Shown here in pieces: positions 3,201 through 22,133 of a stretch of 64,000 nt of DNA. Under the pieces are notes generated by a model that saw only the letters and a program-made list of their open reading frames with translations, had not been told where the DNA came from and searched no databases. The position numbers were made by a program, and so were the translations under genes. Each line of letters opens with the position of its first letter. Position 1 is the first letter of the stretch. The DNA comes from Patescibacteria group bacterium (GTDB taxonomy: Bacteria > Patescibacteriota > Gracilibacteria > UBA1369 > PNNO01), in NCBI GenBank assembly GCA_042568575.1, contig JBHPIO010000002.1, positions 1-64,000 on the forward strand. The letters run 5' to 3'.

Positions 3201-3359
3201 ATATGCCGGTTCATTGATAACTTGAACATCAGGCTTTAAATTTTCGATAAGTTTTTGAAAAGCGGGGCGGTATGCATGTTCACGAGCATCACCGGATTTA
3301 AGGACTTCATTAATTTCTTGAATATAATCTTGAACAATTTCTTTGCTTTTGTCTGTCAT
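204..3359 (-). CDS. Type IIG/ISP-like fused restriction endonuclease-N6-adenine methyltransferase with C-terminal specificity domain
   Basis: N-terminal PD-(D/E)xK-like PDF...AECK; YYTP, DPAAGTG and NPPY motifs; C-terminal DFPRVP...IGGYQ..KWLKDR; no helicase motifs. Confidence 0.85.
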   Translation of the reverse strand: MTDKSKEIVQDYIQEINEVLKSGDAREHAYRPAFQKLIENLKPDVQVINEPAYTGGNAPDFLFKKGDTPIAYAECKDVTVDISHKDVQKQAKRYVDAFGRILLTNYFDFEILNEEGELVSISIAEKIDRDINPIEKNFERFANLICDYITPSHRTIRSAKKLAKIMANKGQILRDNALASLTENPDSDIHKQYETFKEVLIHDLSESDFADMYAQTLVYGLFVARYFDSTLPTFSRHEAQDLLPKSNPLLKKFFGHVAGTDYDPKIAWLVDSLVDAYLSTNVYELMHKEFVKKQKDPVLHFYETFLAEYDKGLRKSRGVYYTPEPVVSFIVRSVDQLLKTKFNLPKGLADTSKIDHKFKIQAEDGRTKDGIKRTSDQIHKVQVLDPAAGTGTFLNDVILEIHKSFKGQEGMWPKYVENHLLPRLHGFELMMASYTMAHLKLGVTLKELGYEGDERLSVWLTNSLEESVHEVPNLFMSQWLTEESHKASHIKSELPIMVVLGNPPYSVSSSNKGESIQNLIKVYKENLNERKINLDDDYIKFIRFAENQIEKTGFGIVAMITNNSFIDGVTHRQMRKHLIETFDEIYVMDLHGNVKKKETAPDGGKDENVFNIMQGVSINLFVKTGEGKGLAKVYHSELFGKQKEKYEKLDEKSFETVKWEKVKAPEPYYFFVPKDFGGQKEYEEGFGVNEIFGIYSSGVETAKDATVIQFNRNKIKRVLSDFQEKENEELSNEYNLKSEKVTQVVDDLKRKNYQITKINYRPFDSRYTIYTDMSQGVLWRPRHKVMQHLVEKENIGFVAKRGMSELNSAMCFLSDAIIDRRFWSCPGMQGAEQLFPLYLYHEDGTKTPNLNDEVIRKIEDSLHLTFSLSILENSVKELGDLETPPRVQTKDTHFEPEDILDYIYAVLHSPGYREKYKEFLKIDFPRVPYPKDKKVFRKLVKLGRKLRELHLLESPKVNNFITTFPESGTNKVEKKYPKYENSKVYINETQYFGKAPEAAWNFYIGGYQPTQKWLKDRRDRELSVEDIEHYQQMIVALSETERIMEEIDEVI

Positions 3360-3526
3360 AAATATGTATTAAAACCCTTTAAATTTATAGCATAATCCCT
3401 CTTTAAAAACAAAAAAGGAGATCCTGTCTCCCTAGCTTGCTCCCCAATATCTTTAATGTTAAATTGAAATCAGTAATTCCTATTAGAAACTGGAGGGGAA
3501 TTTTCATCAAAAAATGAATCATAATT

Positions 3527-4522
3527 ATGAAATTTCAATTCAAAAAACAGGTTTTATTTACTGGTGCTGGTTTCACAAAAAATTTTGGCGGTTTCCTTGT
3601 AGAAGATATGTGGCAAGAAATTTTTAATGAAATGTCCGATTATCCAAAAATTAGAGAGATACTACTCAAGAATCATCCTAATTATGAGCGTGTTTATAAT
3701 CATGTTCTCCGGAAAAATTTACAGGATTTCAAAGACAATGAAAAGGAAGCCTTCAAAAAATCCATTAAAAATGCCTATCGAAAATTGGATAAGATCGTTT
3801 GTGAAAATTTTGTTGGAGGATACAAAAAACATAACATCTCTGTTCCAGAACTAATACGCTTTGCAGGTTCTTTTGCAGGCAGCAATAATGGACAACGTGG
3901 CGTTCTTCTTACGCTAAATCAAGATCTTTTTTTTGAAAGATTTTGTGGGTACAAATCCCCAATGCAAGGGCAATTTTCCGCAAAATTGCATCAAGATGCA
4001 GCAGAATTACAAAACACAGACTTTGAAATAATGCCAAAACATGATGAATTAAAAGAAAAAATAGAAAAATATATTGATGATTTTTTTCATACAGATGGCG
4101 ATTTTTTCCTTTTTAAGTTGCATGGTTCATATGGTTGGCTATCTTCAGACGAGAGTGATCTCATGGTCTTAGGAGAAGAGAAAGAGAAAGATATAGAAAA
4201 AGAACCTTTATTGAAATGGTATAACGATATGTTCAAAGAAATAATGTTTAGGGATGATGTGGAAATGCTAATTATAGGCTATAGTTTCAATGATCCACAC
4301 ATCAATAACATATTTTCTGAAGCCATAAACAAATATGGACTTAAATTTTGTTTAATTTCACCTTCACCAAAAAATCAGTTGGATAAAATTCAAGAAAATG
4401 GACTTGAAAAGGGGTTATATAAAATATTCAAAAAGTCTCTTGCTGATATTTTCCCATATAATCAAACTAGTACCACTGTTGAATTGGAAGAGATTTTAGA
4501 AATCTTTCCATCTGCTAGGTAA
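3527..4522 (+). CDS. SIR2-like domain protein (possible defence NADase)
   Basis: FTGAGF, TLNQD, KLHGS, IIGYSFNDPHIN motifs. Confidence 0.8.
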   Translation: MKFQFKKQVLFTGAGFTKNFGGFLVEDMWQEIFNEMSDYPKIREILLKNHPNYERVYNHVLRKNLQDFKDNEKEAFKKSIKNAYRKLDKIVCENFVGGYKKHNISVPELIRFAGSFAGSNNGQRGVLLTLNQDLFFERFCGYKSPMQGQFSAKLHQDAAELQNTDFEIMPKHDELKEKIEKYIDDFFHTDGDFFLFKLHGSYGWLSSDESDLMVLGEEKEKDIEKEPLLKWYNDMFKEIMFRDDVEMLIIGYSFNDPHINNIFSEAINKYGLKFCLISPSPKNQLDKIQENGLEKGLYKIFKKSLADIFPYNQTSTTVELEEILEIFPSAR

Positions 4523-4567
4523 TAAAGCCTACGTAAAGTTTACTCCGTATCTACTTACACTCCCCCC

Positions 4568-5062
4568 ATGCCCCACTACATAATCCTCCGCGGACCTCTC
4601 GGCTGCGGTAAAACAACAATCGCGCAGAAACTGAGCAAGAAACTCGGCAATGCTATTGTCGTCCATATTGATGATGTGCTTAAGGAACATGATCTCGATC
4701 GCGTCAGTGAGACAATTGGGTGTATTCCTCCTGAAAATTTTGTGAAAGCACAGGAAATCGTGCTGCCTGAAGTGAAAGAAGCATTAGATTTGGGCAAGAT
4801 TGTGATTTTTGATGCGTGTTTCTATCATAAGGAGGCCATAGAGCATCTAACAGACAGTCTTCCCTTCTCTCATTACATATTTACTTTAAAGGCACCAATA
4901 GATGTATGCATCACGCGTGATAAGAATCGCGCACATTCATATGGCGAAGGTGCGGCTCGTGCGGTCTATAATCTGGTTTCGAAATTTGATTACGGGGTGA
5001 ATGTGGATATTTCTGGCACGGTTGATGAGGCGGTGGAGTCTATTATGGCGAATTTGCCATAA
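4568..5062 (+). CDS. P-loop nucleotide-kinase-like (AAA_33-type) protein
   Basis: Walker A GPLGCGKT; lid motif CITRDKNR. Confidence 0.75.
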   Translation: MPHYIILRGPLGCGKTTIAQKLSKKLGNAIVVHIDDVLKEHDLDRVSETIGCIPPENFVKAQEIVLPEVKEALDLGKIVIFDACFYHKEAIEHLTDSLPFSHYIFTLKAPIDVCITRDKNRAHSYGEGAARAVYNLVSKFDYGVNVDISGTVDEAVESIMANLP

Positions 5063-6654: not shown

Positions 6655-7290
6655 ATGAACAACATTCACCCTACCAAGTCGCAACTTCTCGACTTTTGGA
6701 AAGAGACTTTTAACTTTTCCGAGAGGATTCTTGCGGCATTTAAAAAGGTTCCCAGGGAGGATTTTGTTGGGGAAGGTGAGAAGGATCTTGCATATGCCGA
6801 TGTGCCTCTTCCGACTGCCGAGGGGCAGACTATTTCACAGCCGAGCACGGTGATGATGATGCTTGATCTTCTTGAAATTCAACCCGATGATCGAATCCTG
6901 GAAATAGGTTGTGGAAGCGGATATAATGCGGCGCTCATGTCCGTTATCGCAAAAAAAGGCCAGGTTACAACATGTGATATTTTCGAGTCTCTAACTGAAA
7001 AAGCGACATCGAATCTTCGCGACTATAAAAATATTGAAGTAATTTCGGATGATGGATTTAAAGTTGCAAAGGAAAAAGGGCCTTTTGATAAGGTCGTTTT
7101 AACAGCGGCCATAAAGGAGATCCCGGATGTACTGATAGACAACTTAAATGATAACGGAATTATCCTTGCGCCTGTCGGAGATATATTTATCCAGATAATG
7201 ATCCGACTTCGTAAGTCGGGTGGCAAAATTAAAAAAGATGAACACGGCGAATTTATGTTTGTTCCTATTCAGGGGGAGTATGGATTCTAA
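6655..7290 (+). CDS. pcm: Protein-L-isoaspartate O-methyltransferase
   Basis: VPREDF, AYAD.PL, GQTISQP, LEIGCGSGY, FVP motifs. Confidence 0.9.
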   Translation: MNNIHPTKSQLLDFWKETFNFSERILAAFKKVPREDFVGEGEKDLAYADVPLPTAEGQTISQPSTVMMMLDLLEIQPDDRILEIGCGSGYNAALMSVIAKKGQVTTCDIFESLTEKATSNLRDYKNIEVISDDGFKVAKEKGPFDKVVLTAAIKEIPDVLIDNLNDNGIILAPVGDIFIQIMIRLRKSGGKIKKDEHGEFMFVPIQGEYGF

Positions 7291-9849: not shown

Positions 9850-10473
9850 TTAGTTAAACGTAAGACTTTCAACTATTTTGTCAGTCATTTCGATTCGTTT
9901 TTTCTGAGAATCCGAAAGCTCCATCTTGAGCAATTCAGTCCCCGGATCTTCATATATTGCGTAATCTTCTTTTGCAAAGAGGTTTACGGCGAACGCAGCT
10001 TCAGGCCACTCTTCGTTTGGTGTCTCTATGAAATATGTATTTTGAAATCCAAGATCACCCATTTTTGTAACTTCGAGATATGAAGTCACACCTTCTTTCA
10101 TTTGCGTGCAGTCTTTAACATATTCAACAAGGTCTGCTTCGTCACAGGCATTTCTTAATGAAAATCCTGGCTCCTGCCTCTCAAGAAGTCGCGCGAAGTA
10201 ATCCGAACGTTCAAGAGTAAATAAAACGGTTGGGATAAGGAAATCTCTTTCTTCGTCATATTCTCCTATGTGGATTCTAAGAAGTTCTTCTTCCTCGTCG
10301 TATACTTTGATGTCGTACTTTGCGGGATAATCGAACCCAAACCCGATTTCATCGTTAGTGTATTGGGTTAGTTCGCCAGTGTCCTGCGGTGCGGTTTCGG
10401 TTGGCTCGGCGCATCCATGAAGTCCAAGGACTGCCATAAATGTTACGATGCCAACTAAGATTATTTTTTTCAT
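9850..10473 (-). CDS. Lipoprotein, PsbP-like pattern
   Basis: Lipobox LHGC; YTNDEIGFGFDYP motif. Confidence 0.7.
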   Translation of the reverse strand: MKKIILVGIVTFMAVLGLHGCAEPTETAPQDTGELTQYTNDEIGFGFDYPAKYDIKVYDEEEELLRIHIGEYDEERDFLIPTVLFTLERSDYFARLLERQEPGFSLRNACDEADLVEYVKDCTQMKEGVTSYLEVTKMGDLGFQNTYFIETPNEEWPEAAFAVNLFAKEDYAIYEDPGTELLKMELSDSQKKRIEMTDKIVESLTFN

Positions 10474-10484
10474 ATTATTGAGAA

Positions 10485-11072
10485 TTATTCAGCTGGAGCT
10501 GATGGGTAGTTTGAAGGGTCTTCGTCAGGATGAACTCCGCCTCCGCCTTCGATCTGAGGTTCGTCGTCTTCTTCTCCAAACATTTGGTTCATACAATTAT
10601 CAAATGATGCTTCTCCTTCTTCGACTTTATCTTCCGGGATTACGTAGTTAGTTAATCCAACTTCGGTGTTGTCCAGGTCGAGAAAGAAAACATTGTCTGC
10701 TTGTGTTTTCGATGACCAAACATTCCAACATGGGCCAGGTGAATTATCTACACCAGTTCTCCATACAATAAGTTGTTTTTCTTCCAGACCTAAAAGGTAC
10801 AACATATCTATGTTTGGGTTTTCAAGCGTAAACAGAACTTCTCCGTCTTTAACAGATGTAATAGTCCCGTCTTGTGTGTTGTATTTATAATCTAGGGTTT
10901 CCACGATTTCTCTTTTCTGAGACACAGAAGTCTCATTTGTTGGCGCCGTTTCTTCCATAGAAGTATCTTCGCCTGGAGTAGTTGCGTCCTGGGTTGGTTC
11001 TGATGAACCACATCCAGAGAGTCCTAGTATTGCGAGAATGCTAATCATTCCTGCGATTGCGAGCTTTTTCAT
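10485..11072 (-). CDS. Acidic lipoprotein
   Basis: Start MKKLAIAG at 11072; lipobox LSGC; signal peptide resembles that of 9850-10473. Confidence 0.7.
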   Translation of the reverse strand: MKKLAIAGMISILAILGLSGCGSSEPTQDATTPGEDTSMEETAPTNETSVSQKREIVETLDYKYNTQDGTITSVKDGEVLFTLENPNIDMLYLLGLEEKQLIVWRTGVDNSPGPCWNVWSSKTQADNVFFLDLDNTEVGLTNYVIPEDKVEEGEASFDNCMNQMFGEEDDEPQIEGGGGVHPDEDPSNYPSAPAE

Positions 11073-11104
11073 TGTTTTGAGGGTTAAAATTATATGCTCT
11101 GTTA

Positions 11105-11136
11105 TCAATAACACTTAAATTCTAGAAAGTTGCGGT
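11105..11136 (-). promoter_or_regulatory. Putative ECF sigma promoter, copy 2
   Basis: ACCGCAACTT-N12-GTGTTATTGA; both boxes and spacer length identical to 17220-17251. Confidence 0.75.
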
Positions 11137-11147
11137 AATCGCGACGG

Positions 11148-14100
11148 TTATCTTTCGATAGTAATTTTATCGCCCGATGTGATGTTTGCAACTTCTGGGA
11201 ATAGGAAGCTTTCGATTTTTGCCGGATCGGCATAGAAAGTTCCCGGGTGAATTACTGTGGCGTAGTAAGTTCTGTACGGCTTACTGTTCTCACCATTAAA
11301 CCAGTAGAAGTATACTTCTTGATTATGAATGTTATACGGGCTTGCGTTTCCATAATAGCTACCAAAGACCTTAGGGGCTGTTAGCAATTTTAGACCGCTA
11401 GGCATAATGTCCGTAATTAAGTAAGAAGTATCTTTGTCACCCTGAAGGGCAAGTGTGATTTTTACAATATCACCTTCCTGGTATGTTGAATCATCACGAC
11501 TTAAGTTTGTGTAAGATCTAGAAATATTTACGCTGCTGTCTGTCTCGAAGTTTTCAGGGGCAATTGGTTCTTCGTAGTAAATAACTGCTCCAAGATCTCC
11601 CTTAACATCGGTTAGACTTATTCCTTTCATCTTGCTTGCAAGGACTTTATGAGTACCACAAGGCTTAAGTGTGATCTGTTCTTCTGAGTTTCCAGGACGA
11701 ACTGTAAAGCTAACTTCGTCAGGGCTTGCGTATTCAATCGCGTTCTTAATATATCCAATTTCATACAGATTGAGAATGTCGTCTTTTATACCGTGTCTTT
11801 CAACATAAATGTATAGTTCAATTGCGTCATCTTTTTCGCCAAGACCTGCAGCAAGGATTGCTCCAAGCGCTGTTTCGTAAGCGTTGTCGTCTGCCAATTC
11901 ATCAGAGACTTTATTGTAGATCTTTCGTGCTTCTCCGTGATCTCCAAGGCTTTCGAATGCAAGTGCGATATATAATTTTTCTGTAAGAGTTAGAGTCTCG
12001 TCGTCCTTAATTATTTGAAGACTGTTAAGAACCGGTTCGTTCATGTTAGCCAGACCAAGCATCGCAAGAATTACTTCTTCAAAATTTGCATCTGGATTGT
12101 TATAGAAAGAGTTGAAGTATTTCTTGAGCTCTCTAGTGTTGTATCTTTCAGGATTTGGATCGACTGTTGTGATTAATGCTGAAAGTCTTAAATCAGATGA
12201 AGAGTATGGAATAAGGCTTAATCCACCATCTACCTGTTGATAGTTTGTGATTTCAAAGTCACGTCTCTGCGCATACTCAACTTCGAAGTGTTCTGCAAGA
12301 ATTTCTCGCGATATCACCTCGGAAAGTCTTTGATCAATACGTTCACCTTCAGTGAAGTAAAGCCATAATAAGTTCTGATAATGCCTTGTTAATCCGGTAT
12401 CCATGAAGTAAATTTCTGCGAATCCTTCTTCTGGAAGGTCGAATACTGTTGTTTCGTCTACAGAAGGGATTAGTTCAAGGACATCGTGCTTTAGACGAGA
12501 ACCTTTAACTTCCATTGGGAGCGAAATTGCGTCTTTCTTAGATCCTGCTTTTGCATCGATTTGGATATCGTGAGTTCCAAGTTTTAGCTCTGGAAGTTCA
12601 TAATATGATCCTGTAAATGCAGTTCCAGTTATTGTGTCTGACTTTTCTACTCCAAGCGATGTTGCTGTAAGGTTGAAGTCAACTTCGTCGTCCTTAGAAA
12701 GCGCGTTTCCGAATGCTCTAAATTTAAGGATTGGATTATCTTTAATTGAGTATTCCTTGTTCATCACAAGGTCAGCGAACATTGGCAGTGTAACTTTAAC
12801 TGATCCAATTCCAACACCTGCTCTTAAATCTTGAGTATCAATGGCTTTTGCCACAACCCTCCAAGAAGTGATGTTGTCTGGAACTTGGAATGTTACGCTT
12901 CCTTTACCGTTTGATCCTGTTGTGATTGTTTCAAATAGGGCTGTGTCTTCGAAGTCGTTTCGTACGCCGTCTCCGCCTTTATCGTTATGAACGTAGAAGT
13001 TGTTGGCAATGTATGTGTGCTGATCTTTAACTTCGAAGTTATATACCCAAGTTGGTTTATTAACTTTTTTGATCGATGTAACTTTCACATTGTTGCCTTC
13101 TTTTGTCGTTAGATAGTCCCCAATTCTAACGTTTCCTGCAACGTCCCACATGTTGTTAACAAACAGCACATGCTCTCTTGTAACTTCGAGACTGTCGTTA
13201 ATTACGAGGTATTCATTAACATAATGCGAAATTGTGCTGGTAACTTCCGATGCAACTAGTTCATTAGAAAATGCGTGTTTTCTGGTTAAAATGTAGTCAC
13301 CTTTCGCAACTTCCTCGATTGATTTGTATGTTCCGTCTGACATTAGAATTTGTGTACCGGCAGTGAAACATCCACCTGCTTCTGCTCCTGTTTCCAGGTT
13401 TGCGGTGTCTAAAGGATTTGTATGAGTTACGTATCTTTGAATGATACCGTCAGTTTCGCGTGAATATAATTGCTCAATCGGATCCTGAATTCTGTTGTAG
13501 ATAAGTTTGTAATATGCCTCATCAACAAGATTCATATTAATTTTTGTAGCAACTGGGTTTCCGTCTTTATCTTTTACAGTAACGTTTAGTGTTACTTTCT
13601 CTCCCGGTTCGTATGAATCCTTATTAGTTTCCAATTCAACATCCAAACCTTTCAACTCTTTATTATAAGAAACCGAAGTGCTGAAAGTTGTACGATACAT
13701 TTTTCCATCAAACCATACTCCCTGAAGATATATGTTTGGAACATCTTCTTTTTCGAATTTGAATGTATAGTATGGAGATTCCTTTACAACGTGTTCATGA
13801 AGTCCGTTTTGAAGCTGCATGAATAGGAATTGTCCTCCAACATCTACGCTTAAAGGTGTGTCGCTTTGTGTGAATGCTGTTTCAACAGATTCTCCAACAT
13901 CGAAATAATGTTCACCATCATCGTTGTTTAGGATTTTCATTGAATAATAATCTCTACCTCGAGAACTTTCAGATCCGTAAATATAAAGGTTGTCTTCAGC
14001 AAGTCCTCCGTCGTCGTCGTACGTTTCAAACTTAACTGTGTAGTATTTAGATGGATCCATTTCGAATTCATAGTGAGCTACTCCATCGTCATCTGTCACA

Positions 14101-16583
14101 ACGTCAAATGTTCCGTATTCGTTGCTTGCCTGCCTGTAATCATAATCTTTTACAACTTTTTTATTGATGAAATCGTAGTGCTCGCCAGTTTCGATTTTAT
14201 TCCACCATTTTTCCGTAATTATTCCCTTAACTTTTCTGTTGCCTGCAATGTCTCCAATGTGATTTCTATAAGAGTATGATCCTTCATTCTCATTAATCTT
14301 GGTAAGGTCGATCCAGTTAGTCTGGATGTCCATGTATGCAGTGTTGTCTTTAACTTCTTTCTTTGCGTCCACGTCTATGTGCGATCTGTATACTGCAATG
14401 CTTACGGATCCGTAAATGTCAGATGATTCTCCTTTGGTTGGATAGAAAGAGAAGTATTTAGTATCGACCTCATAGTTTGCTGCGGCCTTTTGTGTGTAAA
14501 CTGCCTTTCCATTTTCATCTGTTACGAGAGCAGTTCCATCTGAATCTCCGTAATTAAGTTCTACATAAGGTACAGGAGTGCCGTCAAAGAAATGCGTATC
14601 GATATCGATTTTGATTTCTTCTCCCGAGAACATTGCTCTCTTGTTTGGAGTTACTTCAATATCATAAGTTGGCTTTGTATAAGCGCGAACGTTAATTGCT
14701 TTGCTGCCTATAGTTTTTTCTCCGTCGTAAATTGCGATTACATAACTACCCGGAAGCATTTCTTCAAAGTCGTATGATCCTGAGAATGTGCCGTCTGCTT
14801 CTGCTTCGAAACTAAGATCGGAAACAAAGGCATCTGGAGCGAATCCAAGATATCCTCCCCATCCTTTATATAGCTTCATGTTCATGTCTTCTATCTGGCT
14901 GCCGTCTTTAGGGTCAACAAATCCCCAGAAACGCATTTTGTCGTTTGGAAGATACATCGGCCTGTCAGTGTCGAATGCATACCAATAACTTTTCTGTGTC
15001 TCGCGTGACACAACTTGAGTAACAATACTTTTGCCGTCTGCAGCTGTGATTTTAATGGTATTTTGTGAGTGATTTTCTTGAGGGAAGTCGAATCTTGCAA
15101 CACCATTGTTATCTGTCTTTGTGGAAATACTTTCACCTATAACTTCAACAGTTGCGTTTGTAGCAGGTTTTTCTGCTGAAAGATCATGTGTCCATACAAT
15201 TGCGTCTGTGGCTGTTGCAGAAATGAATGCCGAAAGGTCAGTCATTTGAACTAGTGCCTGATCCATATCATCGTCAGTATTTACCTTGAAGAGGTAATAC
15301 CCGTCAGATAATTCTGCCGAAGGCATGTGGATGTATTGTCTCCAATCTTCTTCGCCAATTTCCGCTTCAAAAGTTGCGATTTTCTCTAAGTCAGAAATTT
15401 TATAGTCGTATTGGCTTCTAGTTAAACTTGCCCAGTAAGGGATATTTTCTCTTTCTTCCAACGCTTCGATGTATTTATCTACATCACTGAATTTGTATAC
15501 TTCAACATCAACTGTTGGAGCTTTTGGTTCAGGAATTTCAATTTCTATTGGATTTCCCTCTTCATCAAATTCAAGTTCTGCTTCTGGGATTTCAACAAAT
15601 ACCGGAGTGTCATCAAGATTTGTATAAACAGTCATTGCAAGCGGTTGAGCTGAACTTACTTCGTAGTAATCTTTCGAGAAACTGAAGTATTTTGACGATG
15701 TAGGCGCAGGTCCTTCCGCAGTTTCGAACTGAACTGTGTAGTCTTCGAGTAATGTTTGATCACTTTTTAGAAGTGGAAGTCCGGCTTTTAAAGTAACTGT
15801 ATAGATAGTAGCCGGATCAAGTCCTCCTTGTGGAACAAAACTCACTGTTCTTTGGTGGTGTTCGAATGTTCCCTGAACTTCAGGAGAAATTTCGAAGTAT
15901 TGGAACATGTGTTCAACGTCTAATTGTTCGTGGCTGAATGTGAATTCGATACCTGAGTTTGTTGGTATACCACTGGTTTTGTCAGCCGGAAGGCTTCCGG
16001 TGACTTTAAAAGTATCTTTTACTTGATACGCCCAGCTGTATCCTTTAGGTCCTTCGTCTGTTTCACTTACTATCACAAAGTTATATATGGCGTTTGGTTC
16101 GAGACCGTTTGCTGGCTGCACTTTGTATTTGCCTTCTTCTATCTTGGTGACATTAAGATCCGTATCAGGGGTTACTTTAATATTCGCTTCAACTGCTGCT
16201 GCATCAAGGTCTTCCGACGCTATTAATGTGAATGAAGTGTCTGATTCGATTCCGCTTGAGTCCTGATTATCGGCTGTCATTTCAAAATGTGCGCTTACTG
16301 TTGGAGGTCCCGAGATGAACCCGCTTTGCAGAAGGTTCTGCAGATTTGGTCCAAATACGATTGCTACTATAACGAGCACCGCGACTACGCTTGCCCATGC
16401 AATCTTTTTCGGCATAAAGAGTGAGGCGAAAAAGTTACCTCCAGATTTAGCCTTCTTTGATTTGGCAGGAGCTTTTTCCAGTCCAGTTTTCTGCTGGATA
16501 TATTTCCAGAGATACTCCTTGCTCTTTTTGACCGGAGCTTTATCGACCTTACGGTCTTTAAAGTCGTTGTTTAGTATATTCAT
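11148..16583 (-). CDS. Membrane-anchored alpha-2-macroglobulin family protein: short cytoplasmic N-terminus, TM, Ig-like (Big_5-like) domains, MG domains, Hint insert
   Basis: TDRPMYLP (MG2), YTKPTYDI, NKDSYEPGEKV, RNDFEDTA...VPDNITSWRV, C-terminal ITDIMPSG...Y.ATVIHPGTF; TM at about residues 62-78. Confidence 0.9.
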   Translation of the reverse strand: MNILNNDFKDRKVDKAPVKKSKEYLWKYIQQKTGLEKAPAKSKKAKSGGNFFASLFMPKKIAWASVVAVLVIVAIVFGPNLQNLLQSGFISGPPTVSAHFEMTADNQDSSGIESDTSFTLIASEDLDAAAVEANIKVTPDTDLNVTKIEEGKYKVQPANGLEPNAIYNFVIVSETDEGPKGYSWAYQVKDTFKVTGSLPADKTSGIPTNSGIEFTFSHEQLDVEHMFQYFEISPEVQGTFEHHQRTVSFVPQGGLDPATIYTVTLKAGLPLLKSDQTLLEDYTVQFETAEGPAPTSSKYFSFSKDYYEVSSAQPLAMTVYTNLDDTPVFVEIPEAELEFDEEGNPIEIEIPEPKAPTVDVEVYKFSDVDKYIEALEERENIPYWASLTRSQYDYKISDLEKIATFEAEIGEEDWRQYIHMPSAELSDGYYLFKVNTDDDMDQALVQMTDLSAFISATATDAIVWTHDLSAEKPATNATVEVIGESISTKTDNNGVARFDFPQENHSQNTIKITAADGKSIVTQVVSRETQKSYWYAFDTDRPMYLPNDKMRFWGFVDPKDGSQIEDMNMKLYKGWGGYLGFAPDAFVSDLSFEAEADGTFSGSYDFEEMLPGSYVIAIYDGEKTIGSKAINVRAYTKPTYDIEVTPNKRAMFSGEEIKIDIDTHFFDGTPVPYVELNYGDSDGTALVTDENGKAVYTQKAAANYEVDTKYFSFYPTKGESSDIYGSVSIAVYRSHIDVDAKKEVKDNTAYMDIQTNWIDLTKINENEGSYSYRNHIGDIAGNRKVKGIITEKWWNKIETGEHYDFINKKVVKDYDYRQASNEYGTFDVVTDDDGVAHYEFEMDPSKYYTVKFETYDDDGGLAEDNLYIYGSESSRGRDYYSMKILNNDDGEHYFDVGESVETAFTQSDTPLSVDVGGQFLFMQLQNGLHEHVVKESPYYTFKFEKEDVPNIYLQGVWFDGKMYRTTFSTSVSYNKELKGLDVELETNKDSYEPGEKVTLNVTVKDKDGNPVATKINMNLVDEAYYKLIYNRIQDPIEQLYSRETDGIIQRYVTHTNPLDTANLETGAEAGGCFTAGTQILMSDGTYKSIEEVAKGDYILTRKHAFSNELVASEVTSTISHYVNEYLVINDSLEVTREHVLFVNNMWDVAGNVRIGDYLTTKEGNNVKVTSIKKVNKPTWVYNFEVKDQHTYIANNFYVHNDKGGDGVRNDFEDTALFETITTGSNGKGSVTFQVPDNITSWRVVAKAIDTQDLRAGVGIGSVKVTLPMFADLVMNKEYSIKDNPILKFRAFGNALSKDDEVDFNLTATSLGVEKSDTITGTAFTGSYYELPELKLGTHDIQIDAKAGSKKDAISLPMEVKGSRLKHDVLELIPSVDETTVFDLPEEGFAEIYFMDTGLTRHYQNLLWLYFTEGERIDQRLSEVISREILAEHFEVEYAQRRDFEITNYQQVDGGLSLIPYSSSDLRLSALITTVDPNPERYNTRELKKYFNSFYNNPDANFEEVILAMLGLANMNEPVLNSLQIIKDDETLTLTEKLYIALAFESLGDHGEARKIYNKVSDELADDNAYETALGAILAAGLGEKDDAIELYIYVERHGIKDDILNLYEIGYIKNAIEYASPDEVSFTVRPGNSEEQITLKPCGTHKVLASKMKGISLTDVKGDLGAVIYYEEPIAPENFETDSSVNISRSYTNLSRDDSTYQEGDIVKITLALQGDKDTSYLITDIMPSGLKLLTAPKVFGSYYGNASPYNIHNQEVYFYWFNGENSKPYRTYYATVIHPGTFYADPAKIESFLFPEVANITSGDKITIER
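12984..13370 (-). other. Hint / bacterial intein-like (BIL) domain, 129 aa (residues 1072-1200), inside the A2M
   Basis: CFTAGT start, TREH block B, VYNFEV block F, YVHN end; +1 residue Asp; no homing endonuclease. Confidence 0.9.
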
Positions 16584-16585
16584 GA

Positions 16586-17164
16586 TTATATAGAGTTAGT
16601 TGCTAATAATTGTCTTAAATTGGTGAGCGCTCTATGCATCATTGATTTGACCGCGCTTTCGGATCTTTTAATAACTTCGCCAATTTCTTTATGTGAAAAG
16701 CCTTCGAAATAATGAAGACTAACTATGTTTTGATATTTTGGATTTAAAGTTCCCACTGCGTCGCTTAGCTTAGAAAGGTCTTCGTCTCCGAACATTGATT
16801 TATCAAGTGCTTCCATTTCTTCCTTTGCGTTTGTCTGAAGTTGTTTCAGTCCCTGCATTTCTTCTGTAAGCGGTGCTATTTTCGGATTTCTACGATGATT
16901 TTTTAATGCGTTGATGGCAATCCGATAGAGCCATACTTTTATCGAAACGCCGGTCCACTTAAATTTGTGAAGGCTTTCGAATGCTTTAATAAATGTTTCG
17001 GCAGTGAGGTCGTATGCGACTTCACTGGACATGGTCCTTTTCACCAAATACTTGAATATCATTTCGTAGTAATGATTGTATACCTTTTCAAATACAGCTT
17101 TGTCTGATTTGAAATCTTCAAGTATCTGCTGCTGGACCTCTGGTGAAAGGTCACTGTGTTTCAT
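16586..17164 (-). CDS. ECF (sigma-70 group 4) RNA polymerase sigma factor
   Basis: AYDLTAETFIKAF, WLYRIAIN (region 2); SHKEIGEVI..SESAVKSMMHRA (region 4). Confidence 0.92.
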   Translation of the reverse strand: MKHSDLSPEVQQQILEDFKSDKAVFEKVYNHYYEMIFKYLVKRTMSSEVAYDLTAETFIKAFESLHKFKWTGVSIKVWLYRIAINALKNHRRNPKIAPLTEEMQGLKQLQTNAKEEMEALDKSMFGDEDLSKLSDAVGTLNPKYQNIVSLHYFEGFSHKEIGEVIKRSESAVKSMMHRALTNLRQLLATNSI

Positions 17165-17219: not shown

Positions 17220-17251
17220 TCAATAACACATGGATAAAAATAAGTTGCGGT
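17220..17251 (-). promoter_or_regulatory. Putative autoregulatory ECF sigma promoter, copy 1
   Basis: ACCGCAACTT-N12-GTGTTATTGA, 55 nt upstream of the sigma start. Confidence 0.75.
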
Positions 17252-17290
17252 TTTTATTTATGAGTGCACCGTAAAAAAGCGTTTATTTTG

Positions 17291-17377: not shown

Positions 17378-19462
17378 CTACTGCGACTTGCGTCGCCGCA
17401 GGAGCAGAAGGCCAATGCAACCGATGATGAGGAACAGTGGACCGGTGGGTCCGCTGTCCTGGTTGGAAGAGCAGCCGCAGCCGCTCTTAGGTTCTTTGGT
17501 GCAGTTCGTGGTGTCGAACTGGCACTGGTTGGAGCAAGTGAGAGTGCCATCATCGAAGTCGTGATCAGCGCAGGTGTTGTTATTGAGCGCTGCGCCATCG
17601 CATTGCTCGCCGTCGTCGACAATTCCGTTGCCACAGACGTTGGACTCGGTTTCGCATGAACTGCTGCAGCCGTCACTGTCGGCGAGGTTGCCGTCGTCGC
17701 ACTCTTCTCCGTCGTCGATGGTTCCGTTTCCGCAGTTCAGCGTGCAGCCGGAAGTGTCGAAGCCGCACGATTGGTCGCAGGCGAGGTCGCCGTCGTCGTA
17801 GCCTTGATTCTGGCACGTTGCGTTGCCGAAAGCTTGCATGTCACACTCTTCGTTCGGACCGTTGATGATGCCATCACCGCAGCGGTAGCACTGCGATGCG
17901 TCGAGTTGGCAGGATGCGTCGCAGGCGAGGGTACCACCGTCGAAATTGAGAGATTCGCAGGTGTTGGTTCCCAGATCGCTGGCGTCGCACATCTCGCTGG
18001 CCTGGTTGAGAATGCCGTCACCGCAGGAAGCGTCGAAGCATCCAGAGGTGTCGACGGTGCAATCGGAGTTGCAGGTGAGGTCGCCGAAGGCGTGGCCGAA
18101 ATCGCTGCAGGTTTGGGTGCCGAAGTCGAGATTGTCGCACTCATCCGTGCCGTTCATGATGTCGTCACCGCAGATGAAGTAGTGACACCCGGAGGTGTCA
18201 ATCGTGCAGCTGCCGGTGCAGGTGAGCGTCCCGTAATCGAAGTTCAGTGATTCGCAGGTCGCGCTCCCGAAGGCTGGGCCATCGCATAGCTCGGTGCCGT
18301 CGATGGTGTTGTTGCCGCACATGTGGCAGCCAGCGGTGTCGAACGCGCAGAAGGCGTCGCAGGCGAGGGGTCCACCCACGAAACTGTGGTTGGTGCAGTC
18401 CTGGTTGTTCAGGTCGCTGCCGTCACACAGCTCTGTGCCGTTCTTGATGCCGTCGCCGCAGATGGGCTGGGGCGACATGTACTTGATCGTCCATACCTCC
18501 TCCGTGGTCACGGCCTGGCTGTCCTTGGTGAATGCGTTGTTGCCGTCATACCGCCAAAGGCCGATGTCCGGGGCTCCTCCTCCGATGGCCATTACGATAT
18601 TGTTCTGGCTGATCGCGATTCCTCGGGAATCTGTGAGCATTCTTGTCATGAACGAACCGGGGTTGCTAATCGGAATGAAGTAGACCTCGTCCCCGTTTCC
18701 TGCGGATGAGGCCACGACGTAGCTGGAATTGATATCCATGTCATCTATGGGTAGCGGCAGGAACTGCCACACACTGATGTTCGTGCTGTTGGGCGGGTTT
18801 CCACTCGAATAGGCGTGAGTGCCCGAGTAGTAGAACGTTCCGTTGTCGTCGTACAGCATTGCGTAGGGCTGTTCCGTCACCGTGAGCCCGATGTTCGGGT
18901 AGTGGACCACGGCCTCGGTAGCGATGTTGATTGATGCGACACCGCCGTCGAGCTTGTTGAGCACCCAGATGTGAGTAGCTGTCCTGGTGATTCCCAAGAA
19001 GCCGGTTCGTCCCATGTCGATTGCGACGTAGTCGGTGCAGTCCAGCGCGACTTTGGATACGAAGGTTGCGGCTTGATGAGTGCTGTAGGCGTAGGTTTCC
19101 GCTACGAGCCCCCGGTCGCCGACCTGACCAGCGTTATAGTCGCAACTGGTCGCGTCTGCGGTAAGGTCGTATATCAGCAGATGGGTGCTGTTCTGGCGGG
19201 TAGTGATGAGATGTCCCTCCGCTCCGGAGGTGATCCCGGGCCCGCTTCCCAGCACTGGGCCGATGTCTGCGTAGGGCAGTCCGTCTTCGTCGAGCAGCAG
19301 CACGGACGTGGGAGTGGTGGCAATGAAGCAGCCGTTGTCGGCAGCTTGTTGGGTTGTGGCCATGGCTTTCGGGGCATAGAGCCCCAGAGCCAGAACCGCG
19401 AGGGTGATTGCGATTGCACGTTTCTGCATGCGTTTCTCCTTGTCTCCTCTGTCAATGAACAT
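17378..19462 (-). CDS. High-GC secreted protein: beta-rich N-domain, myxobacterial Cys-rich repeats, MYXO-CTERM sorting signal
   Basis: Signal peptide from ATG 19429 (SD AAGGAG); CGDGI...E.CD repeats; C-terminal SGCGCS-linker-TM-RRRK. Confidence 0.85.
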   Translation of the reverse strand: MFIDRGDKEKRMQKRAIAITLAVLALGLYAPKAMATTQQAADNGCFIATTPTSVLLLDEDGLPYADIGPVLGSGPGITSGAEGHLITTRQNSTHLLIYDLTADATSCDYNAGQVGDRGLVAETYAYSTHQAATFVSKVALDCTDYVAIDMGRTGFLGITRTATHIWVLNKLDGGVASINIATEAVVHYPNIGLTVTEQPYAMLYDDNGTFYYSGTHAYSSGNPPNSTNISVWQFLPLPIDDMDINSSYVVASSAGNGDEVYFIPISNPGSFMTRMLTDSRGIAISQNNIVMAIGGGAPDIGLWRYDGNNAFTKDSQAVTTEEVWTIKYMSPQPICGDGIKNGTELCDGSDLNNQDCTNHSFVGGPLACDAFCAFDTAGCHMCGNNTIDGTELCDGPAFGSATCESLNFDYGTLTCTGSCTIDTSGCHYFICGDDIMNGTDECDNLDFGTQTCSDFGHAFGDLTCNSDCTVDTSGCFDASCGDGILNQASEMCDASDLGTNTCESLNFDGGTLACDASCQLDASQCYRCGDGIINGPNEECDMQAFGNATCQNQGYDDGDLACDQSCGFDTSGCTLNCGNGTIDDGEECDDGNLADSDGCSSSCETESNVCGNGIVDDGEQCDGAALNNNTCADHDFDDGTLTCSNQCQFDTTNCTKEPKSGCGCSSNQDSGPTGPLFLIIGCIGLLLLRRRKSQ
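17500..18462 (-). repeat. About seven tandem Cys-rich protein repeats (mostly about 48 aa)
   Basis: CG(D/N)G...E.CD...C......G.L.C...C..DTSGC units. Confidence 0.8.
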
Positions 19463-19624: not shown

Positions 19625-20887
19625 TTACCCAAGCAGTTTCTCAAACTGTCCCTTATTATCGTAAGGTCCAATAACGGCAACTCTCATGTTCTCGGGCTTC
19701 AACAAATCTTGTGCAACTCTTTGGATGTCTTCTACTGTAACTGCGTCTAGTTCTTTCATAATTTCTTCAGGACGCATGATCTCGCCGTGAAGGAGTTCGT
19801 ATTTACCCATCAAATGAGCAATTTCTTCGCTATCTTCTAGACGCAAAACCATTTTTCCTTTCATGAAGTTTTTCGCTTTCTCAAGCTCTTCTGGACTAAC
19901 TTTCTCTTTCCTGATTTTTTCGTATTCAGCAAGAATCGCGCTAATTGCTTCATCGATTCGTTTAACTTGTACGCCGGCTCCGGTTGATAAAATTCCTGTA
20001 TCAACAAAATTATCTGTAGCAGTTCGAATGTAATAACAAAGCCCCCTTGCTTCTCTAACAGAAAGGAACATTCGTGAGCTCATATTTCCGCCAAGAATTA
20101 TTCCGAGCAGTTTTTCTGCCCAGTGATCAATGTGTGTCTCTCTATAAGAAGGTACACCTACGATAACATGCGCTTGTTCTGTGCTTTTTTCATGAAGATA
20201 AACCAGGTCGCCACCTTCATGAGGTTCCAAACCTTTAAAATCGAAAGCCTTTTTATCGTTGCTAAATGCAAAATATTTTTGAGTAAGATCAGCAGCAGTC
20301 TTGTCATCAATGTCTCCCGCCAAAGTCAAAACGATATTATCCGGTGAGTAAAGATCCTTCTTATAGTTCACAAATTGTTCGTGAGTTACAGACTGAATGA
20401 ACTCGGGAGTTCCAATTTGATCCCATCCAAGAGGTTGATCTCCAAAAACAAGTCGCTCAAAATCCCATCCAATTTGATACATCGGGGTGTCTTGATACAT
20501 ATTGTATTCCTCCATAATTACGCCTCGTTCTTTGTCGATTTCTTTTGTGTCGAACTTTGCGTGAAGCAGCATGTCGGATAAAACATCCATTGCACGTTCA
20601 ACGTGATCTGAAGAAACTTTTACGTAATATCCCGCATATTCTTTTCCTGTGAAAGCATTGAAATCTCCACCGATTCCATCGATTGCTTCGGAAACTTCAC
20701 GAGTATTTTTGTACTTTTCGGCTCCTTTAAAGAACATATGTTCGAGAAAGTGCGAAATCCCGTTGATTCCTTTAGTTTCGTAACGCGAGCCTGCTCCGGC
20801 GAGTATTAAAACGGTGACAGCCTTGGTGCTTTTGAGATTCTCTGTTATAAGGCGAAGGCCACTTGGAAGTATGTCTTTCTTATGCAT
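19625..20887 (-). CDS. M16 family (pitrilysin/insulinase-like) zinc peptidase
   Basis: HFLEH inverted zinc motif, NAFT, SSRMF..VRE.RGL.Y; start probably MHKKD at 20887. Confidence 0.93.
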   Translation of the reverse strand: MHKKDILPSGLRLITENLKSTKAVTVLILAGAGSRYETKGINGISHFLEHMFFKGAEKYKNTREVSEAIDGIGGDFNAFTGKEYAGYYVKVSSDHVERAMDVLSDMLLHAKFDTKEIDKERGVIMEEYNMYQDTPMYQIGWDFERLVFGDQPLGWDQIGTPEFIQSVTHEQFVNYKKDLYSPDNIVLTLAGDIDDKTAADLTQKYFAFSNDKKAFDFKGLEPHEGGDLVYLHEKSTEQAHVIVGVPSYRETHIDHWAEKLLGIILGGNMSSRMFLSVREARGLCYYIRTATDNFVDTGILSTGAGVQVKRIDEAISAILAEYEKIRKEKVSPEELEKAKNFMKGKMVLRLEDSEEIAHLMGKYELLHGEIMRPEEIMKELDAVTVEDIQRVAQDLLKPENMRVAVIGPYDNKGQFEKLLG

Positions 20888-20953
20888 AAAACTTAAGTTA
20901 ATTTCTTTTATCAAAATTAACATACCTTCCGTGAATCGTCATGCCAATAGTGA

Positions 20954-21838: not shown

Positions 21839-22065
21839 AACATCGCCTCCATCCTTCATCCACTCTCTCCCCAGGCCACCAAACCCCTTCGGCCTATTTC
21901 TCTCCAAAAAGCATAAATAAGAGCACGGGTGTCTACTCAAAACATCCGCTATCCCAATTTGTATGCAAACCGCACTGCGTTGCCGTATAGCAACCCAAAT
22001 TTGACATACTTAGCGGCACCTTATTTCGCTTAGCTCGCAAAATCACTGACGGTTGTTGAGACGCG

Positions 22066-22096
22066 AGGCACACACCTTCCCACACGCCTTTTTTTT
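22066..22096 (+). terminator. Hairpin plus T8 ending the long 3' UTR of high-GC gene 3
   Basis: AGGC/GCCT stem, C-rich loop, eight T. Confidence 0.45.
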
Positions 22097-22133
22097 CTGT
22101 AATATAGTAACCCGCAACCAGTTAACTGAATTT

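Follow-up and report, generated by a model that had tools for sequence, protein, structure and literature searches.

Proteins of the alpha-2-macroglobulin (A2M) family, complement among them, are set off when a foreign protease cuts a single loop, the bait region. Here we describe a gene whose product belongs to this family and holds, within the bait loop itself, a domain of the Hint superfamily that is predicted to bring its own cutting chemistry; were that chemistry to run, it would show that the trigger can be internalised. The gene lies in the first 64,000 nucleotides of contig JBHPIO010000002.1 (assembly GCA_042568575.1), a stretch called the window below, and its source cell is a Peregrinibacteria-like member of the Patescibacteria. 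The domain had first been noticed in a reading of the letters alone, to which we refer as the sequence-only reading.

In the complement components C3, C4 and C5, a folded extra domain, the anaphylatoxin domain, is inserted in the A2M scaffold, the chain is cut by furin and convertases, and removal of the domain triggers the conformational change. Bacterial A2Ms of type I, such as E. coli YfhM (ECAM) and SaA2M of Salmonella, string together several macroglobulin (MG) domains, a bait-region domain (BRD), a thioester domain (TED) and a C-terminal MG domain, with a disordered, Gly-rich bait ahead of a conserved Arg segment and a tether to the membrane; ECAM is a lipoprotein encoded beside pbpC, with the thioester motif CLEQ and a protease-sensitive bait of about 40 residues. 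The type II protein MagD of Pseudomonas has no thioester and still traps a protease (PMC5764988, excerpt; sources so marked are cited from part of their text).

Bacterial intein-like (BIL) domains of the A-type, represented by PDB entry 2lwy and Pfam PF07591, are found in hypervariable regions of non-conserved bacterial proteins (PMC7765530, excerpt) or before toxin tips. In the same excerpt the C-terminal His-Asn is given as an A-type feature, and these domains are said to cleave C-terminally by Asn and to be such that they "cannot ligate the flanking sequences". BIL2, from the polyubiquitin-like BUBL1 locus of Tetrahymena thermophila (6y75/6tmm), forms an isopeptide bond to lysine, conjugates its Gly-Gly-ended N-extein without ATP, and is switched by Zn at its block-B histidine (PMC8616854). 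Among anti-sigma factors, finally, the single-pass RsgI of Clostridium thermocellum undergoes an extracytoplasmic self-cleavage that is essential for intramembrane proteolysis and release of its sigma factor (PMC10328401, excerpt), and the FecR/FoxR-type factors are built alike.

Set against these systems, the protein described here shares the domain layout, the Gly-rich bait before a conserved Arg and the membrane tether of ECAM and SaA2M, and differs from ECAM in its N-terminal transmembrane anchor, the absence of CxEQ, the Hint domain in its bait and the sigma factor gene upstream. It resembles MagD as an A2M family member without a thioester, whereas MagD has neither a Hint domain nor a sigma partner. 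As in complement, a folded extra domain stands at the same topological point; here, however, the inserted domain itself is predicted to carry the cutting chemistry. That domain has the Hint fold, Cys1, TxxH, block F VYN, terminal His-Asn and extracytoplasmic host of the A-type BILs, and like them lacks a +1 nucleophile and an endonuclease; unlike them, it keeps to a single site in a conserved protein, with which it is inherited across the phylum and of which it is the best-conserved part. BIL2 is its best structural match and likewise has Gly-Gly before Cys-Phe; the proposed acceptor of BIL2 is a lysine, and here an invariant Lys adjoins the C-junction. BIL2 differs in being eukaryotic and cytoplasmic, with ubiquitin-like flanks and a ubiquitin-like conjugate as its product (PMC8616854). 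The RsgI, FecR and FoxR proteins use small Asn-Pro motifs in small domains near the membrane, while the candidate Hint site lies about 1000 residues out.

BIL/Hint domains, bacterial A2Ms with and without a thioester, and pairs of extracytoplasmic function (ECF) sigma and anti-sigma factors are thus all known kinds. What is new is a BIL fixed in an A2M bait loop as the best-conserved module, which would be for the BIL field the first such case in a conserved protein, and its coincidence with thioester loss in a large clade; the apparent use of an A2M as the extracytoplasmic part of an anti-sigma factor is new as well. The sequence-only reading knew of no description of the architecture, and our literature search, with subscription journals mostly outside its coverage, returned no account of a Hint/BIL domain in an A2M bait or of an A2M-type ECF anti-sigma factor; the sole match on the latter subject is, to judge by title and abstract, a review of antimicrobial peptides. 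Gracilibacteria A2M genes are mentioned only as a possible protease defence in PMC9793634, and PMC13059738 merely cites the SaA2M paper.

The host protein and its inserted domain

Features are given one to a line, here and in later sections; residues are those of the 1811-residue product.

11148-16583, minus strand: A2M-like protein gene (P0001), 1811 aa, with the Hint insert (open reading frame and translation, open under table 11; Pfam, profile, Foldseek)
13503-13898, minus strand: A2M bait-region domain (Pfam A2M_BRD), residues 896-1027 (Pfam; aligns to ECAM 854-921)
12768-12944, minus strand: Pfam A2M domain, residues 1214-1272, directly 3' of the insert
11193-11525, minus strand: C-terminal MG domain (Pfam bMG10), residues 1687-1797
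16350-16403, minus strand: single predicted transmembrane helix, about residues 61-78 (IAWASVVAVLVIVAIVFG), read from the sequence by eye, with a basic segment before it

The host protein is a member of the A2M family. Pfam finds Big_5 (191-288), bMG3 (448-519), MG2, A2M_BRD (896-1027), PT-HINT (1085-1194), A2M (1214-1272) and bMG10 (1687-1797), and these matches, the profile search, the model and Foldseek together give the superfamily layout of an MG-domain ring, a bait-region domain, a TED-like helical domain and a C-terminal MG domain. Because a phmmer search of the PDB with the whole protein returned Hint chains only and did not reach the A2M structures, a family profile was needed; built from 27 members and run against the PDB, it matched E. 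coli YfhM/ECAM at E 7e-54. A 1200-residue AlphaFold2 model of the host protein (pLDDT 82.2) led Foldseek to SaA2M and ECAM (4u48, 5a42) at E ~1e-43 (1.1e-43 for 4u48), in agreement with the family assignment of the sequence-only reading. The N-terminal sequence is best explained by a type II membrane protein, with a predicted short cytoplasmic N-terminus, proposed to bind the co-transcribed ECF sigma factor, one transmembrane helix and about 1730 extracytoplasmic residues.

12984-13370, minus strand: Hint/BIL domain, residues 1072-1200, 129 aa (translation, Pfam, NCBIfam, phmmer, model, Foldseek)
13368-13370, minus strand: codon of Cys1072 (Hint Cys1), after Gly1070-Gly1071 (conservation among homologues)
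13170-13181, minus strand: block B, T1135-R-E-H1138 (TxxH), with T1135 and H1138 invariant in 120/120 listed homologues
12984-12989, minus strand: terminal His1199-Asn1200, invariant in 120/120 listed homologues

The local sequence reads ...ETGAEAGG / CFTAGTQILM...EVTREHVLF...TWVYNFEVKDQHTYIANNFYVHN / DKGGDGVRNDFEDTA, where the slashes mark the Hint boundaries; VYNFEV is present within the domain, and FYVHN closes it directly before DKGGDGVRNDFEDTA. Everything that the sequence-only reading had described at this place was recovered at 12984-13370, namely the 129 residues, Cys1, TxxH, VYNFEV, the terminal HN, the +1 Asp, both flanks and the absence of an endonuclease, and a scan with hidden Markov models matched both PT-HINT and A2M-family models. 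PT-HINT (PF07591) matches at E 2.6e-11 with 44.4 bits, where 27.7 is the cut-off, and reaches 49.3 bits when the genome is scanned; five more Hint/intein Pfam models match below their own cut-offs, and NCBIfam intein_Cterm passes its cut-off of 15.6 with 16.2 bits. The best PDB match is 2lwy, a "bacterial intein-like domain" of Clostridium thermocellum (phmmer E 6.9e-9; profile E 6.9e-17). An AlphaFold2 model of residues 1060-1212 (pLDDT 89.5, pTM 0.83) was compared by Foldseek, in which Tetrahymena BIL2 6y75 (TMq 0.79, rmsd 2.3 A) and 2lwy (TMq 0.75 / TMt 0.83, rmsd 1.9 A) scored better than mini-inteins (TMq 0.62-0.71) or Hedgehog (TMq 0.71), whose own Hint is cleaved at G / CF. The Hint fold is thus a predicted one, and the inserted domain belongs to the BIL branch of the superfamily.

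A Cys nucleophile, block B TxxH, a C-terminal His-Asn and the lack of a +1 nucleophile are all features of A-type BILs, and the residues for an N-S acyl shift and for Asn cyclisation are all invariant, which bears out the assignment to a BIL-like kind in the sequence-only reading. The habitat is not that of an A-type BIL, since hypervariable regions of non-conserved bacterial proteins are replaced here by one fixed site in a conserved A2M family. Nor is the domain a canonical class 1 intein, which has Cys, Ser or Thr at +1 where this one has Asp1201. No endonuclease is present, as the 129 residues, a length kept in 120/120 listed homologues, leave no space for one. The match in this protein is the sole PT-HINT match in the genome (81.8% complete), and the GC content of the Hint stretch is 0.377 against 0.399 for the gene.

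Position in the bait loop

13371-13442, minus strand: N-side bait linker, residues 1048-1071, predicted to be disordered, ending in Gly-Gly (pLDDT <50 at 1048-1069, model residues 437-458)
12963-12983, minus strand: C-side bait linker D1201-K-G-G-D-G-V1207, then the invariant Arg1208 (conservation; low pLDDT)

The insert sits in the A2M bait loop. In the profile search against the PDB, profile positions 960-1027 align to chain residues 815-882 (ECAM 854-921) and positions 1201-1808 to chain 936-1608 (ECAM 975 onward), where chain residues are converted to ECAM numbering by adding 39, the GCLEQ cysteine at chain index 1148 being named Cys1187 in PMC4498604 (excerpt); the same offset on both flanking segments places the unaligned gap at ECAM 922-974. 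A MAFFT alignment that includes ECAM, its gene taken from E. coli K-12 and translated, puts the Hint columns between ECAM 927 and 977. According to PMC4498604 (excerpt), the ECAM bait stretch Arg923-Leu942 has no density after elastase cleavage, and the C-terminal MG domain is contacted by three residues of "the cleaved bait region", Arg956, Gly958 and Asn963; the interval 927-977 takes in most of the former and all three of the latter. With the flanking linkers of low confidence in the AlphaFold2 model, the bait location proposed in the sequence-only reading holds. In the same MAFFT alignment, ...RFGGDGDELKR956GG... of ECAM stands against DKGGDGVR1208 here, and it is plausible from this match that R1208 is the counterpart of ECAM R956. 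A second line of comparison started from the bait region of a Hint-less relative, with which phmmer reached C5, CD109 and human A2M and did not reach ECAM; the R..F.DTA motif of this relative, the one that follows the insert here, aligns to residue 732 of human A2M and residue 768 of C5. These two positions we take to lie just past the human bait (precursor 690-728) and just past C5a.

Within the 1200-residue model, the Hint domain has block-mean pLDDT values of 76-92 and is flanked on both sides by low-confidence linkers, the C-side one with pLDDT <50 at residues 1202-1207 and 1210-1213, while the N-side linker varies from 12 to 27 residues across the listed homologues. A compact domain between disordered linkers, at a site that by the C5 alignment equals that of the anaphylatoxin domain, could also be an unreactive Hint that serves as a folded plug or binding domain, as the anaphylatoxin domain does in C3/C4/C5, with proteases cutting the linkers. 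We regard such an inactive structural module as highly improbable: unless the domain reacts at both of its junctions, there is little reason for the strict invariance of Cys1, TxxH, His-Asn and Gly-Gly in 120/120 listed homologues.

Conservation, selection and distribution

In the protein databases, 288 proteins match residues 900-1300 at E <=1e-5, and the 120 that are listed were used for conservation counts. All 120 carry PF07591 along with A2M domains; their source names include Peregrinibacteria, Gracilibacteria, Uhrbacteria, Magasanikbacteria and Parcubacteria, and their automatic names include "polymorphic toxin-type HINT domain-containing protein". G1071, C1072, F1073, T1135, H1138, N1182, H1199, N1200, K1202 and R1208 are invariant throughout the listed homologues and the Hint length is always 129 aa. 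The N-extein ends in Gly-Gly (-2/-1) in 120/120, and G1070 taken alone is conserved in 119/120. Asp is the commonest +1 residue (90), followed by Glu (19), Gln (7) and, twice each, Ser and Asn, so that D/E/Q/N account for 118/120, and a Lys stands at +1 to +3 in 97/97 distinct Hint loci. Over the 115 full-length proteins, the Hint domain is the most conserved region, with a mean pairwise identity of 0.50 against 0.36 for the rest of the protein, and Hint and host identities correlate (Pearson 0.68). Against a same-genus orthologue, dN/dS is 0.045 for the Hint domain and 0.085 for the whole gene, rough estimates with dS near 1, and these values show, at the level of sequence comparison, purifying selection on the Hint domain.

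An A2M match was found in 32 of 41 genomes (40 relatives and the window's own genome). Among the 24 relatives' loci that were read, 19 have the Hint domain at the same point and the other 5 a plain Gly-rich junction (GKGG-GGG) in its place. In a sample of 401 genomes spread evenly over the phylum, 43 match at E <=1e-5: a contiguous flank-Hint-flank match is present in 20 (6 from the window's order and 14 from other classes), 19 are Hint-less A2Ms in which the match is confined to the flank after the Hint, 3 match the Hint only and 1 is a fragment at a contig end. At least 474 loci in species-representative genomes encode a relative, and of the best 80 of these, 79 have a complete Hint by pattern, the 80th being masked in its C-part.

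A FastTree phylogeny of the host columns (37 rows, rooted on ECAM), in which ECAM and L020 form long branches and the deep nodes are unsure, separates two clades. The first has 28 rows, all without GCxEQ, and Hint in 27; its sole Hint-less member, L018 (genome G030), is nested inside, and its lack of the domain is therefore a loss. The second has 8 mixed rows, with Hint in 4. A tree of the Hint domain alone recovers the same shallow groups as the host tree with its deeper nodes unresolved, so old transfers may have taken place. A selfish mobile intein was considered and rejected, as there is no endonuclease, only a single PT-HINT in the genome, a GC content like that of the gene, and fixation in the large clade; canonical inteins are sporadic and often accompanied by a homing endonuclease, which is not the picture in the main clade, while the second clade is patchy. 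The sporadic occurrence that the sequence-only reading had named as the mark of a selfish intein is accordingly not what the large clade presents.

These data also bear on whether the Hint domain is a passenger that splices, excising itself and religating the bait through a peptide bond with the Asp1201 alpha-amine or a Lys1202 isopeptide, so as to leave a short Gly-rich bait. Such an anciently fixed intein-like element would be intact only because splicing failure would ruin the A2M. All splicing-type residues are invariant in 120/120 listed homologues; the GKGG-GGG of the Hint-less relatives stands at the same point, and a religated ..GG-DKGG.. would look alike. A few lineages have Ser at +1 (2/120 listed; also L025, L029 and L036), the Lys within +1 to +3 is present in 97/97 Hint loci, L018 represents a clean loss, and the nearest structural relative, BIL2, forms a Lys isopeptide (PMC8616854). 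Being the most conserved part of the host (0.50 vs 0.36) is, however, unusual in a passenger, the domain shows no length variation in 120/120 listed homologues, there is only one clean loss among the 28 main-clade rows, neither an endonuclease nor a second genome copy is found, and A-type BILs do not ligate according to the excerpted PMC7765530. On balance we hold splicing to be rather unlikely, if still a serious contender, beside self-scission of the bait, to which we return below.

Some individual loci stand out. L018 has the junction GGKGG-GGDEGATRK, a clean absence of the Hint domain, with no upstream sigma gene and a very short N-terminus. L032 (G086) and L033 (G059) have a divergent Hint of about 140 aa at the same site, on a very long branch, with GGC...VHN kept and an upstream sigma gene. 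Several contigs with a Hint-A2M (L052, L056, L061, L105 and others) are titled Gammaproteobacteria, Pseudomonadales, Flavobacteriales or Nanoarchaeia; these may be mislabelled bins or real spread beyond the Patescibacteria, and we draw nothing from the labels.

Loss of the thioester

12330-12350, minus strand: degenerate thioester site E1412-G-E-R-I-D-Q1418, replacing GCxEQ (aligns to ...YPYGCLEQ of ECAM)

The CxEQ that defines bacterial A2Ms of type I is replaced by EGERIDQ here. None of the 115 full-length Hint-bearing homologues has the CxEQ motif, the site reading G[DE]R[LI]DQ instead, and GCxEQ is found in 0 of the best 80 of the at least 474 species-genome loci, whereas CxEQ is present in 3 of 5 Hint-less relatives. 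As far as these alignments go, they show that in the large clade the Hint domain is present and the CxEQ thioester has been lost. The second clade holds the other combinations: in L021, L023 and L024 GCxEQ occurs without a Hint, in L030 and L034 the reverse is the case, and L022, whose reading frame runs off the locus, has neither. Hint and thioester can coexist, since L019 (G026) and L031 (G234) have the Hint and an intact GCxEQ, and these two may be transitional forms that link the thioester-bearing and the Hint-only proteins. With type II proteins (MagD/YfaS) the locus shares the absence of the thioester; its neighbours are a sigma factor and lipoproteins without a family match, in surroundings where no search was aimed at mag/yfa partners.

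The loss invites the idea of a covalent warhead, in which an external amine resolves the Gly1071~Cys1072 thioester, for instance a lysine on an attacking protease or on a protein at the surface of the host cell, so that the membrane-anchored N-fragment becomes tied to its target as a functional substitute for the lost CxEQ; the cells are episymbionts. In its favour, the thioester motif is present in 0/115 full-length and 0 of the best 80 Hint-bearing proteins, yet in 3/5 Hint-less relatives, the N-extein ends in Gly-Gly in 120/120 listed homologues like the ubiquitin-like N-extein of BIL2 (the C1A-mutant PDB chain reads GGAF), and BIL2 itself joins its N-extein, with no need of ATP, to lysine residues on other proteins (PMC8616854). 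The two devices are not strictly alternative, though, given L019 and L031, the CxEQ comparison involves few sequences, which are related to each other, a thioester that persisted in an exposed loop would be lost to hydrolysis if nothing gated it, and the target is purely hypothetical. Covalent attachment through the Cys1 thioester, which the sequence-only reading had also raised, is by analogy a speculative proposal, and we consider the warhead decidedly improbable.

Proposed self-scission of the bait

The best explanation, to which we give an even chance, is that the Hint domain processes the bait autocatalytically, with scission as the net result. After export and folding, Cys1072 would carry out an N-S acyl shift that turns the Gly1071-Cys1072 peptide bond into a thioester; Asn1200 would then cyclise, breaking the Asn1200-Asp1201 bond. 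Since the +1 residue is Asp, classical trans-esterification is unavailable, and the thioester could meet one of three fates: it could be hydrolysed, which would cut the bait, or it could be attacked by an amine, either one within the chain (the Asp1201 alpha-amine or the Lys1202 epsilon-amine) or a foreign one. Most likely the bait loop would end up cut, with the 14-kDa Hint excised or kept on one fragment. Scission would be the same covalent event that proteases cause in ordinary A2Ms, and would free the segment containing Arg1208, the likely counterpart of the ECAM Arg956 that docks anew, after cleavage, onto the C-terminal MG domain. On this view the Hint would serve as an internal trigger, or as a device for maturation, in the place where complement C3/C4/C5 carry the anaphylatoxin domain and a chain break.

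We rank scission first because it needs only invariant residues, because it amounts to the covalent change by which ECAM is activated, in which the Arg956 segment becomes untethered (PMC4498604, excerpt), because the strong conservation of the Hint domain argues for a function in the host, and because self-cleaving anti-sigma factors have a precedent in RsgI (PMC10328401, excerpt). If it is true, the Hint-A2M would be a natural and genetically simple switch for studying the conformational change of A2Ms.

Several points weigh against it. The scission products are putative, being proposed from sequence. A constitutive self-cut would leave the trap permanently sprung, so that gating or a non-trapping role would be needed. 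Fixed mini-inteins also keep their catalytic residues, as splicing failure kills the host protein, so invariance alone is no proof of a host function. Some A-type BILs reportedly ligate without a +1 nucleophile, according to work of Dassa and colleagues in 2004 and Aranko and colleagues in 2013, and in the C. thermocellum BIL the thioester is said to be attacked by the freed alpha-amine, the route that Asp1201 would take here. The Gly-rich junction of the Hint-less relatives resembles the one that splicing would create; the presence of the Hint-less L018 inside the Hint clade implies that the A2M can work without the domain, and occurrence in the second clade is patchy (4/8 rows). The equivalence of R1208 and ECAM R956 rests only on the local similarity GGDG..R, and the Hint lies about 1000 residues from the membrane, a distance that any relay from bait rupture to the sigma factor would have to span. 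The Gly-Gly at -2/-1 and the Lys at +1 to +3 are, moreover, left unexplained by simple hydrolysis, which keeps the lysine routes alive.

A redox-gated trigger, as suggested in the sequence-only reading, finds no support. Cys1072 is the only Cys conserved in 115/115 full-length homologues, and the protein here has one other; the next commonest Cys pair (106/115), in the loop after residue 701, is absent from it. Gating by a disulfide with Cys1 is thereby rejected for the family as a whole.

A putative sigma factor partner and a candidate regulon

16586-17164, minus strand: ECF sigma-70 family gene of 192 aa, with 2 nt between its TAA stop and the A2M ATG (Pfam Sigma70_r2, r4_2, r4 and Sigma70_ECF; junction; synteny)
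16398-16583, minus strand: predicted cytoplasmic N-terminus, residues 1-62, the proposed anti-sigma segment (conserved motif; complex model)
17221-17252, minus strand: promoter-like motif AACCGCAAC-N15-TGTTATTG upstream of the sigma gene (both blocks invariant in 8/8 orthologous upstream regions)
11108-11135, minus strand: second copy of the motif, 13 nt past the A2M stop and before a lipoprotein gene (genome pattern search)

The A2M gene is adjacent to and co-oriented with an ECF sigma factor gene across a 2-nt gap, as is the rule for ECF anti-sigma factors, and the topology of such factors, a cytoplasmic domain and one transmembrane helix, fits on a reading of the sequence: ahead of a single hydrophobic helix, the N-terminus consists of about 60 basic residues that include ..RKVDK..KSKEYLWKYIQ.K, a motif conserved among the N-termini compared. 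No Pfam family, including the families of anti-sigma domains (ASD), matches residues 1-100. A sigma gene stands directly upstream in 21 of 31 Hint-bearing loci, 16 + 3 recognised in rounds of tblastn searches and 2 by Pfam. Of the remainder, two loci allowed no verdict, 6 have an upstream gene that on inspection is something other than a sigma gene, and for L029 and L034 tblastn, the only method applied to them, finds none. Because a sigma gene also lies upstream of two of the five Hint-less A2Ms (L021/L038 and L022/L040), the pairing of sigma factor and A2M is independent of the Hint.

A model of the complex between the sigma factor and A2M residues 1-62 scored 0.87, against 0.02 for the best of 3 controls; in the benchmark, 58 of 80 solved complexes pass the mark, as do 2 of 110 mismatched pairs, counts that apply only roughly here since the alignments were our own. 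The runs agree in >=91% of contacts, with a partner pLDDT >=63, and bring partner residues 3-35 against sigma residues 22-63, 96-133 and 152-187. As sigma/anti-sigma complexes have already been solved, the pass may partly reflect likeness to these. With that proviso, the model supports the view that the N-terminus of the A2M binds the sigma factor and would act as an anti-sigma domain.

The pattern CCGCAACTT-N-GTGTTAT, derived from the promoter-like motif, occurs 8 times in the genome against 0 for a reversed control. One site precedes the sigma-A2M pair and one follows the A2M stop ahead of a lipoprotein gene; those beyond the window (genome G000, contig:position) are C1:57263, C2:23038, C23:28753 and 29011, C28:60205 and C31:30582, of which 4 lie before three other lipoprotein genes, 1 before a gene for a protein with an S-layer homology (SLH) domain, and 1 is unassigned. 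Most sites stand 30-60 nt ahead of lipoprotein, SLH or sigma-A2M genes, and together they form a candidate ECF regulon. The genome has 6 sigma-70 region-2 matches, and homologues of the M50 site-2 protease are present. These features are read most economically as an autoregulated ECF system for envelope proteins, in which the A2M-Hint protein serves as anti-sigma factor, although how a rupture of the bait would lead to release of the sigma factor is a matter of proposal.

Its pairing with an ECF sigma factor hints that, in Patescibacteria, the A2M scaffold acts as a receptor in signalling and not only as a shield, in a phylum whose envelope sensing and host contact are very little understood. 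A bolder reading joins both halves into a self-armed covalent device and ECF anti-sigma sensor, in which the thioester is passed, in the manner of Tetrahymena BIL2, to Lys1202 or to a lysine of a foreign protease or host-cell surface protein, while bait rupture, relayed through the membrane, frees the sigma factor for the small regulon of envelope lipoproteins. We think this distinctly unlikely; if it is true, it would amount to a new class of bacterial transmembrane signalling together with enzyme-free extracellular conjugation, widespread in episymbiotic Patescibacteria.

Genomic neighbourhood

Directly downstream of the A2M gene lie genes for two paralogous lipoproteins without a Pfam family, about 27% identical to each other, the second of which is kept in the loci of several relatives. 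A gene upstream of the sigma gene encodes 694 residues that match DUF4215 and contain internal repeats, 40-48% identical to each other.

10485-11114, minus strand: first downstream lipoprotein, lipobox LSGC
9850-10473, minus strand: second downstream lipoprotein, lipobox LHGC
17378-19462, minus strand: 694-aa protein with DUF4215 match
204-5062: Type ISP restriction-modification enzyme (1051 aa) beside a SIR2_2-domain protein and a small AAA protein
6655-7290, plus strand: protein-L-isoaspartate O-methyltransferase
19625-20923, minus strand: M16 (insulinase-type) peptidase
22053-24413, plus strand: class B penicillin-binding protein
24423-26006, plus strand: GH18 chitinase-like protein with S-layer homology domains

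The group around the Type ISP enzyme looks like a defence islet. The methyltransferase repairs isoaspartate derived from succinimide, and we assume that its proximity to a Hint domain expected to cyclise Asn is a coincidence. The M16 peptidase, the penicillin-binding protein and the GH18 protein form, together with the A2M, an envelope-related neighbourhood.

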